The notes under the pieces are model-generated. The model ran no database searches. It worked only from the letters and a program-made list of their open reading frames with translations, and had not been told where the DNA came from. Positions 8,123 through 13,150 of a stretch of DNA of 26,338 bases are shown in pieces; positions within the stretch are counted from its first letter, which is position 1; every line of letters begins with the position of its first letter. The stretch covers positions 1 through 26,338 of the forward strand of contig JBPCOR010000100.1 of assembly GCA_051000035.1 (NCBI GenBank), given 5' to 3'. The position numbers and the translations under genes are program-made. Source of the DNA: Mycobacteriales bacterium. GTDB taxonomy: Bacteria; Actinomycetota; Actinomycetes; Mycobacteriales; QHCD01.

Positions 8123-8266
8123 GGCGCCGGCGCCGAGCCATCCCGAGCATGGACGCGATCATCGGCACCCCCTCGGCCGCGCTCTGTTGTTCCAGCAGTC
8201 CATCCTCATCTGACGTTGCAGGCGAATTTGCGACGTGCCTGCTGATAGTTGACAGCTCTATCGCGC

Positions 8267-8524
8267 TCAGTGCGCAGGGGCGTCCACGAGCGCGACCGGG
8301 CGGCCGTCGGGACCGTCCAGGTACGCCCGTTGGTGACCGGAGGGATGGCGAAACGGCTCGCGCCGGATCGTAAGACCTCGAACGCGCAACCGCTCCACTT
8401 CGGCAGCCAGGTCGTCGCAGAACACCACGAGTTCGACGGTGTTGCCTTGCACTGGGTCGAGGCCGGACCCCCGCGGTGTTTCTGGAGAAGAGACAGCGAG
8501 CACGCTCGGACCGAGACGCAGCAC
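8267..8524 (-). pseudogene. VOC/glyoxalase-family protein, C-terminal portion only
   Basis: VELVVFCDDLAAEVERLRVRGL..EPF..PSG.RAYLDGPDGRPVALV; in-frame TAG at 8530-8528 just upstream, no RBS, upstream DNA is IS3 sequence. Confidence 0.65.
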
Positions 8525-8525
8525 C

Positions 8526-8746
8526 GTCTATCTCGGTTCGCAGTCGACCTTCTACCGGCTGCTGCGCATCGCGAGTGGCACCGCTGACCGCCGCCGCCAC
8601 GCCGTCCATCCGGCGGCGGTGAAACCCGAACTGGCCGCTGCCGCGCCGAACCAGGTGACTCGTGGGACATCACCAAACTGCACGGGCCGGCGAAGTGGAC
8701 CTACTACTACCTCTACGTGATCCTGGACATCTACTCGCGTTACGTC
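8526..8746 (+). mobile_element. IS3-family transposase internal fragment, frameshifted
   Basis: VYLGSQSTFYRLLR...HPAAVKPELAAAAPNQV / SWDITKLHGPAKWTYYYLYVILDIYSRYV (start of the rve domain with the first catalytic Asp); one base missing at 8658-8659; no terminal inverted repeats seen. Confidence 0.85.
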
Positions 8747-8764
8747 TGTGATCCACTCGGCTGC

Positions 8765-9349
8765 CTAGCTCGGTTGGATCACCTTGCGCATGACGCAGTG
8801 GTTCTTGCCTTTGGGACGCTCGTAGGTGAAGCCGGACCGCTCGAGCATGCTGCGGGTGCCGTTGTAGAGGAACGACCCGGAAACCTTCTTGCCGGCGATG
8901 TCGTACGGATAGGCCTCGACGACGCCACCGCCGGCGGCCGCGATCAGCTCCAACGCGCCGCCGAGGGCGGCGTCGGCGACGCCCTTGCGCCGGTGCCGCC
9001 GGTCGACGAAGAAGCAGGTCAGCCGGTAGTCGGGCACCGGCGCACCCTCATATTCGACCTCCGCGCGGTGCGTGATGCCCGGCAGCTCTTCGGGACTGCC
9101 GTACTGACACCATCCCACCGGGGTCTCGCCGTCGAACACCAGAGCGGCGTGCGCCCTGCCCTCTCGCACCAGCCGCTCCTTGTAGCCACGCCAGTCACCG
9201 GCCCCGCACGCGCGTCGCTCGGCGGAGGTCGCGTTGTGGAACCAACAGCACCAGCAGCCGCCCATTCCGGCGCCGTTGTTCCGTTCGCACAGATCGGCGA
9301 ACGCGTCCCAGGTCTGGCTCGTCAACGCCTTGATCCGGTACTCACCCAT
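8765..9349 (-). CDS. GNAT-family N-acetyltransferase
   Basis: GCWCCWFH, VGWCQYG, TCFFVDRRHRRKGVA (acetyl-CoA motif A), VEAYP, ERSGF; AAGGAGG RBS. Confidence 0.9.
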   Translation of the reverse strand: MGEYRIKALTSQTWDAFADLCERNNGAGMGGCWCCWFHNATSAERRACGAGDWRGYKERLVREGRAHAALVFDGETPVGWCQYGSPEELPGITHRAEVEYEGAPVPDYRLTCFFVDRRHRRKGVADAALGGALELIAAAGGGVVEAYPYDIAGKKVSGSFLYNGTRSMLERSGFTYERPKGKNHCVMRKVIQPS

Positions 9350-9402
9350 CGCGCCGTCCTCCTTCGTCGTGACGCAGGTTCGGTCCCTCGGACCTGTGGC
9401 CG

Positions 9403-9434
9403 ACGGTACGGTGAGTCACGGACGAAAGGCTTCC
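9403..9434 (-). promoter_or_regulatory. Putative WYL-activated promoter of the GNAT gene
   Basis: - strand GGAAG-CCTTT-CGTCCG-N10-TACCGT; same layout as 11145-11176. Confidence 0.6.
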
Positions 9435-9442
9435 TCGACGCG

Positions 9443-10428
9443 ATGAGCAACGATGTAGGCCCGGTCGGACGTGCGCTGCTCGCACTCGAGGCGATCCAGG
9501 CGGCGCCGGGCATCACCGGCGCCCGGCTCGCCGCCCGGCTCGGCGTGACCGATCGGGCCGCGCGCCGCTATGTGACCGTGCTGCGCGAGGCCGGGATCCC
9601 GGTCGAGTCGGCCAGTGGTCCGTACGGCGGCTACCGGATCGGGCGCGGTGCTCGGATCCCGCCGTTGATGTTCAGCACGTCCGAGGCGCTTGGGCTGGTG
9701 ATGGCGGTGCTGCAGGGGTGGCACGGATCGGTCGAAGCCGACACCCCGCCGCGACCGCGCTTGCCAAGATCCTGCGCGTGCTGCCGGCCGCGACTGCCGC
9801 GCCGGCCGAGGCGATGCGACGCGTACGGGCGCAGAACCCGAGCGACAAGGCCGCCACGCCCGACGCGGAACTGACGGCCACGACCACGCAGGCTTGCCAG
9901 AACCGCAAGCGGATCCGCCTCACCCACCGCACCGGCAGCCGGATGCGGCTCGAACCGTGGGCCGTCGTCGTCCGGCACGGGCGGTGGTACCTGCTCGGCT
10001 GGCTACCCGACGCCGACGCACGCCGGGTCCTGCGCCTGGACCGCATCACAGACGTCGAGACGACTGGTGAGTCATGCACACCACCGGACGACCTGGACCC
10101 GGTACGCGAGGTCGAGGACCACCTCGCCGACGGCTGGACCTACCCGGTTCAGGTCCGCATCGACGCGCCGGTGACAACGGTTGCGCCGTGCATCCCGCGC
10201 ACGCTCGGTCGGCTCGACGCAAGCGGCGAACACAGCTGCATTCTGCGCGGCAGCACCGACGAACCCGCCTGGTACGCCGAGCAACTGGCAGCCATACCTG
10301 CGCCGTTCACGGTCCTGACCTCGGCAGAGATACAGGCCGCGGTACGAACCCTCGCGCACCGCCTCACCCAGGCCGGGGGCGCCGCGATCAGCGGGAACCC
10401 GGAGCGCACCGGACCGGTATCGCGGTGA
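9443..10428 (+). pseudogene. HTH-WYL(-WCX) transcriptional regulator (YafY/PafC-like) with a 1-nt frameshift
   Basis: HTH ITGARLAARLGVTDRAARRYVTVLREAGIPVES..GPYGGY in one frame; ALAKILRVLP...EPWAVVVRHGRWYLL..RVLRLDRI in the next; shift at the C4 run 9744-9747; span 986 nt, one short of 329 codons. Confidence 0.85.
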
Positions 10429-10471
10429 CAAATCGGTCACCAGGACGGCGCCGCGAGGCCGGTCGGGGCGA

Positions 10472-11137
10472 TCAATCGATTCCCCAGATCGCCAGGTCGA
10501 CCTCGTTGCCCTCGGCGTCGGCAAGCGTCCACCAGCCCGGCGCATGCGCGTCGCTGACGACGTGCCCGCCGGCTGCGACCGCGGCTGCGATGCGGGCTTG
10601 GACCTGGTCGTGGGGAAGGTAGACGTCGACGTGCATCCGGTTGCGCTGCGGCCGGGGTACGTCCATCTCTTGGAAGGTGAACGTGGGCCCGCGTCGCAGC
10701 GGATCGAAGGCGTCCTCGTCGCCCATCTCGTCATACCCGAGCACCGCACACCAGAACGGCCGGGCCGTGGCGGCCAGAGTCGCGTCGATCGACACCTGGA
10801 CGTGCTGCACCCGGCTGGGGTCAGCCTGGATGTGCAGCTCGCGGGCAGCGACCGAGATCTGCCGGGCCAGCTCGGTGTCGCGGCGGCTCAGTAGCCCGTA
10901 AACACCGGAAAACAGCCGGACGGTGACGCCCTCGGCACGCAGGTCGACGTCGAGATCATGGCCCGCGGCGGCCGCCAGCGCACCGATCTTCTCGACCAGC
11001 GTCGCCCCGATCGTGAACGACCCGGTCCGGAAGTATGCGCACGCCCAGGCGCCACCCCAGATGGGCCAGTCCTCCACCCCATCGGCCTCGAGGAATTGCC
11101 GCCCGGTGATCTGATCTGTCATCTCGTCGCTGGTCAT
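10472..11137 (-). CDS. Pterin-4a-carbinolamine dehydratase-like domain fused to a VOC domain
   Basis: FRTGSF..GATLVEKIG..DVDLR..VTVRL..LSRRDTELARQIS (PCD-like), then RPFWCAVLGY..PRPQRNRMHVDV..WWTLADAEGNEVD (VOC). Start ATG 11137 (leaderless geometry) or 11122. Confidence 0.85.
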   Translation of the reverse strand: MTSDEMTDQITGRQFLEADGVEDWPIWGGAWACAYFRTGSFTIGATLVEKIGALAAAAGHDLDVDLRAEGVTVRLFSGVYGLLSRRDTELARQISVAARELHIQADPSRVQHVQVSIDATLAATARPFWCAVLGYDEMGDEDAFDPLRRGPTFTFQEMDVPRPQRNRMHVDVYLPHDQVQARIAAAVAAGGHVVSDAHAPGWWTLADAEGNEVDLAIWGID

Positions 11138-11144
11138 CCTCCGG

Positions 11145-11176
11145 ACGGTAGACGCTGTTCCGGACGATTTCCGTCC
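11145..11176 (-). promoter_or_regulatory. Putative WYL-activated promoter of the PCD-VOC gene
   Basis: - strand GGACG-GAAAT-CGTCCG-N10-TACCGT, then 7 nt to ATG 11137. Confidence 0.6.
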
Positions 11177-11450
11177 TATATGACGGTCTCGTGCGGTCAC
11201 CGCCGAGAAGAAGCCGGGCGACACGTGGCCCCGCCCCACGGCATCATCATTGACCGGGACGTTTCGATTGAGGAACTCAGGACCGCAGCCCCGGCCCCGA
11301 CCACTCCACCCGACTTTGCTGTTGCGGTGAGCGATCGGTGACCGGGCGTCCGACGGTGGCCGGCCATTGGGCCAGCGGTCAGCTGATCGGTCGCGTCGGT
11401 GGCGCGCTCATGCGAAACTTGGATCGCAACGACGCCAGTGGAGGTTGAGG

Positions 11451-12277: not shown

Positions 12278-13150
12278 TCACACGGCGGTCGGCGCGTGCC
12301 GTGCCACCGGCGTCTGTACCTGTGCCTGTGCAAGCACCCAGTCACACCACTCGCGGACGCCGGCACCCGTGCGAGCGCTGACCTCGATCGTCCGGACGGT
12401 CGGATTCACCGCCGTGAGATTCCGGCGGAAGCCGGCAAGCTCGAAGTCCAGGTGCGGCAGCAGGTCGATCTTGTTGATGACCACCAGGTCCGCGGAGCGG
12501 AACATGACCGGATACTTCAGCGGCTTCTCCTCCCCCTCGGTGACCGAGAAGACCATCGCCCGGGCATGCTCGCCTACGTCGAACTCCGCCGGGCAGACCA
12601 AATTGCCGACGTTCTCGATCATGACGAGGTCGAGATCGTCGATCGGGAGCCGGATCAGTGCGGACCGGACCATCGGCGCGTCGAGATGGCACTCGCCGCC
12701 GTACCCGTTGCCGGTGTTGACCAGCTCGATCGCGGCACCGAACCCCTCGAGCCGGTCCGCGTCCAGGCTGGTCTCTATGTCGCCCACGATGACGCCGATG
12801 CGCAGCCGGTCGGCGAGCACACGCAGGGTCTCGCGCAGCAGCGTGGTCTTGCCGGCACCGGGTGATGACATCAGGTTGATCGCGCGGGCCTGGGCTCGAG
12901 CGAGATCGGCCCGATTCGCCGCGGCGAGCCGGTCGTTCTCATCGAAGATGCGTTCGAGCACCTCGATCCGCTCCGGACCGGTCTGGTATGCCGAGTGGTC
13001 GCCGACGTCGCGCTCGTTGCCGTGCTGGTGATCGGCAGCGTGATCGGGACGGTGCTCGTGCTCGCCGTCGTGCTCGTGCTCGCCGTCGTGCTCGTGGTCA
13101 TGATCGTGGTCATGATCGTGCCCATCGTCGTGCCGATGGAAGCGACCCAT
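12278..13150 (-). CDS. hypB: Hydrogenase nickel-insertion GTPase with His-rich N-terminus
   Basis: MSSPGAGKTTLL, GGECHLDA, ENVGNLVCPAEFDVGE, GEEKPLKYP, NKID. Confidence 0.97.
   Translation of the reverse strand: MGRFHRHDDGHDHDHDHDHEHDGEHEHDGEHEHRPDHAADHQHGNERDVGDHSAYQTGPERIEVLERIFDENDRLAAANRADLARAQARAINLMSSPGAGKTTLLRETLRVLADRLRIGVIVGDIETSLDADRLEGFGAAIELVNTGNGYGGECHLDAPMVRSALIRLPIDDLDLVMIENVGNLVCPAEFDVGEHARAMVFSVTEGEEKPLKYPVMFRSADLVVINKIDLLPHLDFELAGFRRNLTAVNPTVRTIEVSARTGAGVREWCDWVLAQAQVQTPVARHAPTAV
13052..13120. repeat. In-frame tandem duplications within the hypB His-rich tail (2.5x18 bp and 2x12 bp)
   Basis: GTGCTCGTGCTCGCCGTC at 13052 and 13070, partial at 13088; GTCATGATCGTG at 13097 and 13109. 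Confidence 0.85.

Follow-up and report, generated by a model that had tools for sequence, protein, structure and literature searches.

Why should two genes on either side of a regulator gene carry nearly the same promoter element? The question is raised by a 26,338-nt stretch of DNA from a Mycobacteriales bacterium of the QHCD01 lineage (positions 1 to 26,338 of contig JBPCOR010000100.1, assembly GCA_051000035.1), which was analysed as a whole and is called the window here. A gene for a transcriptional regulator with HTH_11, WYL and WCX domains (9443..10428, plus strand, frameshifted as assembled) stands in it between a divergent gene for a GNAT acetyltransferase (8765..9349, minus strand) and a convergent gene for a fusion of Pterin_4a (PCD-like) and Glyoxalase_6 domains, PCD-VOC (10472..11137, minus strand). 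A preliminary description of the locus had placed GNAT and PCD-VOC genes on both flanks of an HTH-WYL gene; Pfam confirms these gene calls, and all three genes have the codon-position G+C pattern typical of real genes. The same description proposed that the WYL protein activates both flanking genes through a variant of the site of the mycobacterial activator PafBC. We consider it probable (roughly 0.7) that the element is a composite operator and promoter of the locally encoded winged helix-turn-helix (wHTH)-WYL-WCX regulator, a member of a sister clade of SiwR from M. smegmatis, which likely activates the GNAT and PCD-VOC genes.

Two matching elements at the WYL locus

The element upstream of the GNAT gene occupies 9403..9438 on the minus strand and reads GGAAG-CCTTT-CGTCCG-TGACTCACCG-TACCGT from 9434 to 9403, with a distal half-site GGAAG (9434-9430), a proximal half-site or putative -26 element CGTCCG (9424-9419) and a -10 hexamer TACCGT (9408-9403). 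Its counterpart upstream of the PCD-VOC gene (11145..11180, minus strand) reads GGACG-GAAAT-CGTCCG-GAACAGCGTC-TACCGT from 11176 to 11145, with TAGGACG at 11178-11172, CGTCCG at 11166-11161 and TACCGT at 11150-11145, and is kept in a congener (genome G001, locus L120). Direct reading of the DNA recovered both 32-nt elements, with the same -10 hexamer and spacer lengths, where the preliminary description had put them.

Such likeness might be a chance or compositional match of GC-rich upstream regions with no regulatory meaning, as the window holds just two copies and the metagenome-assembled genome (MAG) to which it belongs (2.45 Mb, 72% complete) is 71% G+C. However, a pattern search of the window with up to two mismatches matched the GNAT and PCD-VOC sites only, and none of 100 dinucleotide shuffles reached two matches. 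In the entire MAG, CGTCCG-N10-TACCGT occurs twice, both times at the WYL locus. A position weight matrix (PWM) trained on 75 sites from other genomes only was then run over the 4.9 million positions of the MAG, and the PCD-VOC and GNAT sites scored 31.3 and 30.4 bits against 14.4 bits for the third best position; the two local sites are the only strong ones in this genome-wide scan, a check that the preliminary description had suggested. This 16-bit gap in an independent PWM, together with the fixed spacing at which the element is kept over dozens of genera (see below), effectively refutes a chance match. Moreover, the two copies are identical at 16 of 17 family-conserved positions and at 3 of 15 spacer positions, so that they are not the product of a recent duplication and selection on the motif keeps them alike.

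Conservation of the operator across Actinomycetota

Orthologues of the regulator were found among the 60 relatives searched, intact at 87, 85 and 79% identity and in a further tier at 46-56%, and nearly all of their genes are directly preceded by the element, which faces away from them. A scan of a species-representative genome collection gave 80 further loci in many actinobacterial families, from Jatrophihabitans, Nakamurella, Ilumatobacteraceae, Kribbella, Streptomyces, Nonomuraea, Micromonospora, Pedococcus and others. The operator core lies at most 160 nt upstream of the WYL start, directed away from the WYL gene, in 75 of the 80, and the motif is in this respect conserved at orthologous and homologous WYL loci, as the preliminary description would expect. 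The operator has the form wTCCGGAAG-N5-CGTCCGGAA, and the consensus of the 75 sites in the target direction is wTCCGGAAG-caGAa-CGTCCGGAAc-cGA-cc-TAgCgT. Columns outside the anchor are also conserved, namely wTCC on the left, GAA on the right, and the TA and T of the -10.

A strict search that required TANNNT with at most three mismatches was dropped in the course of this work: it missed 22 of the 80 loci though the operator was there, and the sites were re-anchored on the operator core. In the missed loci the target -10 has decayed to TAGCGC, TAGCAC and the like, often without a remaining divergent gene. Loci L061, L066, L071, L073, L079, L087, L089, L101, L108 and others keep the operator with the last T of the target -10 replaced (TAGCGC, TAGCAC, TAACAC); the opposite-strand hexamer of the regulator is frequently kept there, as though only autoregulation survives. 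At L004 (G007:C272, ~2510-2560), compared with L003, a deletion removed the start and first codons of a divergent PCD-Glyoxalase_6 target and left the operator and the WYL gene intact. The 9.2-Mb genome of a Kribbella (G063) contains seven exact motif sites and several with one mismatch. With as many paralogous pairs of regulator and operator as large genomes seem to contain, one may ask how they are kept from cross-talk.

Promoter geometry

PafBC promoters read tGTCgg(N10)tA(N3)T, in which the -26 element covers -23 to -28, the HTH of PafB reads the GTC triplet in it, and a -35 is dispensable (Muller et al., 2021; PMC8635444). The preliminary description had given this motif correctly, and the register of the present element is identical to it. 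At the 75 loci, TANNNT follows CGTCCG after N10 in 56 and after N11 in 2, and at no other spacing, and all six sites away from the divergent position, including the PCD-VOC site of the window, have the same N10. The start codon of an open reading frame (ORF) of at least 90 aa comes 6-8 nt past the hexamer at 43 of 76 sites. Since a start codon 6-8 nt after the -10 is the signature of leaderless actinobacterial mRNAs, leaderless mRNAs are implied at these sites. The PCD-VOC mRNA is predicted to be one of them, because TACCGT is followed by CCGGAGG and then by ATG at 11137, exactly 7 nt past the hexamer. The GNAT transcript has a leader instead; from its predicted start at ~9396 it would run for about 47 nt (53 nt if counted from the -10), with a GAAGGAGG ribosome-binding site, to the ATG at 9349. 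RNA runs contained only about 8% of the sampled words and gave no evidence on start sites.

The rigid TANNNT spacing and the 43 closely placed start codons back the earlier assignment of TACCGT as a -10 with transcription starting about 7 nt on. Judged from these comparisons, the 32-nt element is a promoter and the hexamer its -10. A search of 9300-11300 found no sigma-70-type -35/-10 promoter pair; as there is no canonical -35, the regulator is probably needed for transcription of its targets.

The same operator and the same WYL protein could also make up a pure repressor system like those of BrxR and CapW, in which the protein blocks polymerase at both target promoters and leaves on sensing a ligand. 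This would suit an operator that overlaps the target -35 region as well as the beginning of the regulator transcript; several WYL regulators are known to repress by binding in the ligand-free state, and SiwR, too, binds its own operator in that state (PMC10693628). However, SiwR and PafBC, the closest relatives to have been characterised and alike in half-sites or register, both activate. The base-exact spacing to the -10, seen in the 56 loci and at all sites not adjacent to a WYL gene, is typical of activators that contact polymerase, and the promoters have no -35-like hexamer that would let them fire unaided. Pure repression therefore seems unlikely to us.

A candidate promoter of the regulator itself

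Where does transcription of the regulator gene itself begin? The plus-strand hexamer TACGGT is located at 9407-9412, as reported earlier, and is a candidate -10 of the WYL gene that has its TA in common with the GNAT -10 on the opposite strand. With the operator beginning 7 nt downstream, the predicted WYL transcript would carry it right at its 5' end. At consensus position 22, an A is found in 58 of the 75 regulator-adjacent sites and in none of the six sites off the divergent position (Fisher p = 4e-4). This A and the TA of the target -10 together make up an opposite-strand TANNNT in 57 of the 75 regulator-adjacent sites and in none of the six others. The preliminary description had suggested that TACGGT would let the regulator repress itself. 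The conserved plus-strand TANNNT speaks for this proposal, and autorepression itself is what we infer from it; the overlapping -10s would fit either self-repression or competition between two promoters. In a subclade (L078, L086, L096 and others), the regulator gene would instead be leaderless and have a promoter that mirrors the one of the target. Our reading of the published oligonucleotides suggests that the siwR side in M. smegmatis also has a mirror-image promoter.

The regulator protein

Read through as 9443-9745~9748-10425, the WYL gene encodes 328 aa that align end to end with the intact orthologues. Pfam HTH_11, WYL and WCX matches are spread over the two halves of the gene, and the architecture is of the SiwR type (~320 aa). 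Two Arg pairs are invariant in the alignment, R38/R42 of the HTH and the R-x-x-R of the WYL domain; the latter (R195/R198 in L003 numbering) are the equivalents of SiwR R204/R207 and align with WRSLRLDR of the mycobacterial orthologue. Identity to this mycobacterial SiwR orthologue (L021) is ~32%, and the tree puts the window regulator in a clade apart from SiwR, behind a 100/100 branch of length 1.1. By this phylogeny it is a sister subfamily of SiwR and not the orthologue of MSMEG_1359. Among the outgroups of the tree, the PafB-like row was in the wrong frame (very long branch) and the PafC-like and C270 rows were also long, and outgroup placements were disregarded. The closest solved structure is PafBC (6SJ9, E 3e-9); DriD, BrxR and CapW, which are distant in sequence, gave no match in this search of solved structures. 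A homodimer prediction, run on the 87% orthologue L003, scored 0.66 against 0.00 for the best control, where the score mark is reached by 21 of 30 known homodimers and by 0 of 23 monomers. The predicted homodimer would fit a palindromic site.

As assembled, the gene lacks 1 nt after 9741 and its frame is broken. In Logan contigs of four metagenome runs on rock and sediment, some of which may be the MAG's own source so that the evidence is not fully independent, there is always an extra C behind 9741 that restores ...EADHPAATALAK... exactly as in the orthologues. These contigs differ from the window by five substitutions within 9718-9762, while the flanks match almost perfectly. Five substitutions and a missing C packed in 45 bp look like a locally mis-assembled or strain-chimeric patch of the MAG, and the frameshift is probably not real but an assembly error or a minor variant. 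The frame-repaired protein envisaged earlier for experiments is not needed, as the intact gene is present on metagenome contigs. Some metagenome contigs have CC inserted at 11143-11144, in the stretch from the PCD-VOC -10 to the ATG, or T inserted at 9438, just ahead of the WYL ATG; these may be variants of strains or relatives that would alter leaderless spacing.

Probable target genes and extent of the regulon

Which genes does the element drive? According to Pfam, the 57 motif-driven first genes, with the two of the window included, comprise 36 of MST/DUF664, followed by GNAT (7), DUF1905 (5), Glyoxalase_6 (4, three of them also carrying Pterin_4a), dienelactone hydrolase (3) and F420-dependent reductase (1); operons of alpha/beta-hydrolase and GNAT genes are among the further targets. 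Targets of SiwR-type activators belong to the DinB/YfiT superfamily or to PF18029; those in the window are GNAT and Pterin_4a/Glyoxalase_6 (PF18029), with no DinB member among them by Pfam. A second site is present in 5 of the 80 loci, and four of these second sites drive a gene that converges on the WYL gene, the arrangement also seen in the window.

Ten close GNAT or PCD-VOC homologues in relatives carry the element, in keeping with the earlier expectation that it would recur upstream of these genes. The PCD-VOC orthologue of the congener (86%) keeps both the site and the leaderless ATG, and the GNAT orthologue of the congener (80%) lies behind a PCD-Glyoxalase_6 paralogue in one operon with two sites. 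At L150 of this congener, where a remnant of the orthologous regulator gene is found, the neighbouring site has a -10 of TGCCGT, and a second good site still stands ahead of the PCD-Glyoxalase_6-GNAT operon. In seven relatives, GNAT homologues of 55-65% identity have the element, followed by ATG 7-8 nt past the -10, and within 1.5 kb of them there is no WYL gene. Among other PCD-VOC loci from relatives (L121-L148, down to ~34% identity), the motif was found in none, the window copy and the congener orthologue aside. Close relatives have 2-4 exact sites per genome. The idea of a local regulon accordingly holds for the MAG, where both sites are at the WYL locus, and does not hold strictly in relatives, where some GNAT sites are unlinked. 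From this distribution, the regulon is small and its membership outlasts linkage to the regulator.

The organism's PafBC might read the CGTCCG-N10-TANNNT half, in which case the two genes would be ordinary members of the PafBC regulon and the local WYL protein would be irrelevant or modulating. The register and the GTC triplet are indeed those of the PafBC motif, MAG contig C334 carries a separate tandem WYL pair that is pafBC-like in appearance, and sites in G001 persist beside a truncated local regulator. On the other hand, the element is nearly always found together with a clade-A WYL gene (75 of 80 loci), there is a conserved upstream half-site TCCGGAAG foreign to the PafBC motif, and the fifth base of its hexamer is C, not the conserved G of tGTCgG. 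In addition, the unlinked GNAT site in G003 and G007 shares CGTCCGCAACTG with the site beside the 85-87% orthologue, whereas CGTCCGGAAT stands at the other WYL paralogue, which suggests recognition specific to each regulator. We find an ordinary PafBC regulon very improbable here.

Searches of solved structures and NCBIfam with the GNAT and PCD-VOC proteins returned nothing useful on function, and a link of either to resistance proteins of the bleomycin or mitomycin type is speculation. Just downstream of the GNAT gene, an 85-aa ORF with weak coding statistics (8267-8524, minus strand) matches Pfam Glyoxalase (PF00903, E 2e-5) in the C-terminal part only; it is probably what is left of a VOC gene, and no convincing gene was seen in 8123-8764. 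A gene for a His-rich GTPase of the CobW/HypB type (12278-13150, minus strand) is part of a hydrogenase maturation cluster and unrelated to the WYL unit.

Proposed mechanism and its weak points

How could the regulator work on such a promoter? A homodimer would bind the 15-bp inverted repeat GGAMG-N5-CGTCC (equivalent to GGAM-N7-GTCC). The proximal half-site CGTCCG, 10 nt upstream of TANNNT, would then lie at -28 to -23, the position of the -26 element of PafBC, and the distal half-site would take the place of a -35. For the GNAT gene and the leaderless PCD-Glyoxalase_6 gene to be transcribed, the regulator would probably have to recruit or adapt sigma-A RNA polymerase. By analogy with SiwR and PafBC, the trigger may be single-stranded DNA from genotoxic stress, bound by the WYL domains. 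The bound regulator would probably throttle its own promoter (TACGGT, with the TA in common with the target -10) while it fires the target promoter. The proposal that the local WYL protein activates both promoters through its own variant site has thus gained comparative evidence, and for activation as such the argument runs from homology and geometry.

Several points weigh against this reading. The GNAT site is below the family median (30 against 42 bits) and has CCGTGA instead of CCGGAA, without the GGA found after CGTCC in most sites. The compared loci are phylogenetically related, so their counts overstate independence, and the pairing of this protein with the operator would follow from adjacency and co-occurrence. 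The copy of the regulator gene in the assembly is frameshifted. In the congener G001, what is left of the orthologous regulator at L150 (G001:C58, 2997-3170) is a remnant of its first 58 residues (91% identity); the regulator appears to be decaying there while the sites persist, and another regulator, a paralogue or PafBC, can presumably serve such sites. Finally, the WYL regulators of defence systems, BrxR and CapW, are repressors, and by analogy an operator at -38 to -23 could equally occlude polymerase.

A wider and tentative picture can be drawn, which we hold to be possible rather than likely. A large unnamed sister clade of SiwR across Actinomycetota may carry out PafBC-like sigma adaptation by a symmetric homodimer that sits on a palindrome and has the proximal half of it as the -26 element. 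Back-to-back -10s sharing their TA would flip polymerase between the regulator's own promoter and that of the target. The interchangeable, mostly leaderless cargo (MST/DinB, GNAT, VOC, DUF1905, and dienelactone and alpha/beta hydrolases) would be a mobile toolkit against genotoxic natural products. 

Apart from this wider picture, the arrangement of palindrome, 11 nt, -10, 6-8 nt and start codon provides a sequence grammar for a widespread family of stress switches of actinobacteria. The analysis also places the GNAT and the PCD-glyoxalase fusion, both of them poorly annotated, in a probable response to DNA damage or genotoxins.

Comparison with SiwR, PafBC and other WYL regulators

SiwR (MSMEG_1359) of M. 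smegmatis is a homodimeric wHTH-WYL-WCX activator and binds to an imperfect palindrome of 19 bp, located in the promoter of its divergent neighbour, the dinS operon (Keller, Flattich & Weber-Ban, 2023; PMC10693628). Its activation needs the -26 region, R38/R42 of the HTH and R204/R207 of the WYL domain, single-stranded DNA is sensed, and some SiwR orthologue loci have Glyoxalase_6 (PF18029) neighbours (PMC10693628). The electrophoretic mobility shift assay (EMSA) oligonucleotides of the 62-bp intergenic region, given in the supplement, read toward the target as TAGGAC-CGGAACT-GTCC, 11 nt, CAGGGT, 7 nt and the start codon, and the full operator in them is TAGGAC-CGGAACT-GTCCTA. Similarly, five loci of the SiwR clade (L021, L025, L027, L028, L030) show the layout GTCC-N11-nAnnnT-N6-ATG. 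A placement of the SiwR palindrome abutting the -10 (TATATG), which would shift the geometry by 11 bp, was considered and rejected, since the oligonucleotides and these five loci have GTCC-N11-nAnnnT-N6/7-start. From the oligonucleotide sequences we infer that the 'GGA at -26' of the paper is the complement of the proximal GTCC.

The half-sites GGAC-N7-GTCC of SiwR correspond to GGAMG-N5-CGTCC here (GGAM-N7-GTCC), GTCC stands 11 nt before the -10 in both, and the half-site at about -26 is the one required for SiwR activation. Both proteins are wHTH-WYL-WCX regulators with the essential Arg pairs conserved, the present one being a predicted homodimer, and both are divergently adjacent to small genes of detoxification type; most targets of the present clade (36 of 57) are MST/DUF664, the family of MSMEG_1356. 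On the other hand, the operator here is longer, TCCGGAAG-N5-CGTCCGGAA, and its -10 is a good TANNNT where that of SiwR is a degenerate nAnnnT. Here, the regulator lies between two separate target promoters, whose cargo is GNAT and PCD-Glyoxalase_6. Moreover, the regulator's promoter appears to overlap the target -10 here, whereas M. smegmatis, by our reading of the oligonucleotides, mirrors it across the palindrome.

With PafBC, the element shares a hexamer specific to the activator, with a GTC triplet exactly 10 nt upstream of TANNNT in place of a -35, and the regulator shares a WYL domain, through which PafBC senses single-stranded DNA. Unlike the present case, PafBC is a heterodimer encoded by tandem genes in the pafA operon, controls about 150 genes and reads a non-palindromic site (PMC8635444). 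Here, a single gene encodes a predicted homodimer, the site is a palindrome with its second half at about -37, two sites are found in the genome, and the hexamer is cGTCCG. The PafBC-like architecture named in the preliminary description is accordingly a likeness of mechanism, not membership: register and GTC triplet agree, but the closest known system is the homodimeric SiwR (PMC10693628). DriD of Caulobacter, BrxR and CapW are homodimeric wHTH-WYL-WCX proteins on inverted repeats near promoters. DriD and CapW sense single-stranded DNA, BrxR and CapW repress defence systems, and DriD binds farther upstream of promoters.

The same half-sites and geometry as in SiwR make the finding less novel than it first seemed, and it is no new kind of mechanism. 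The additions to what is known are modest, namely promoters on both flanks, a GNAT and a PCD-VOC gene as cargo, -10 hexamers that overlap, and sites without linkage. The finding places SiwR, the sole published example, as one branch of a larger group with the promoter register of PafBC. The SiwR paper leaves open whether there are targets beyond the adjacent operon and whether sigma adaptation is used (PMC10693628); unlinked GNAT sites and an exact PafBC-like spacing make both questions directly testable.

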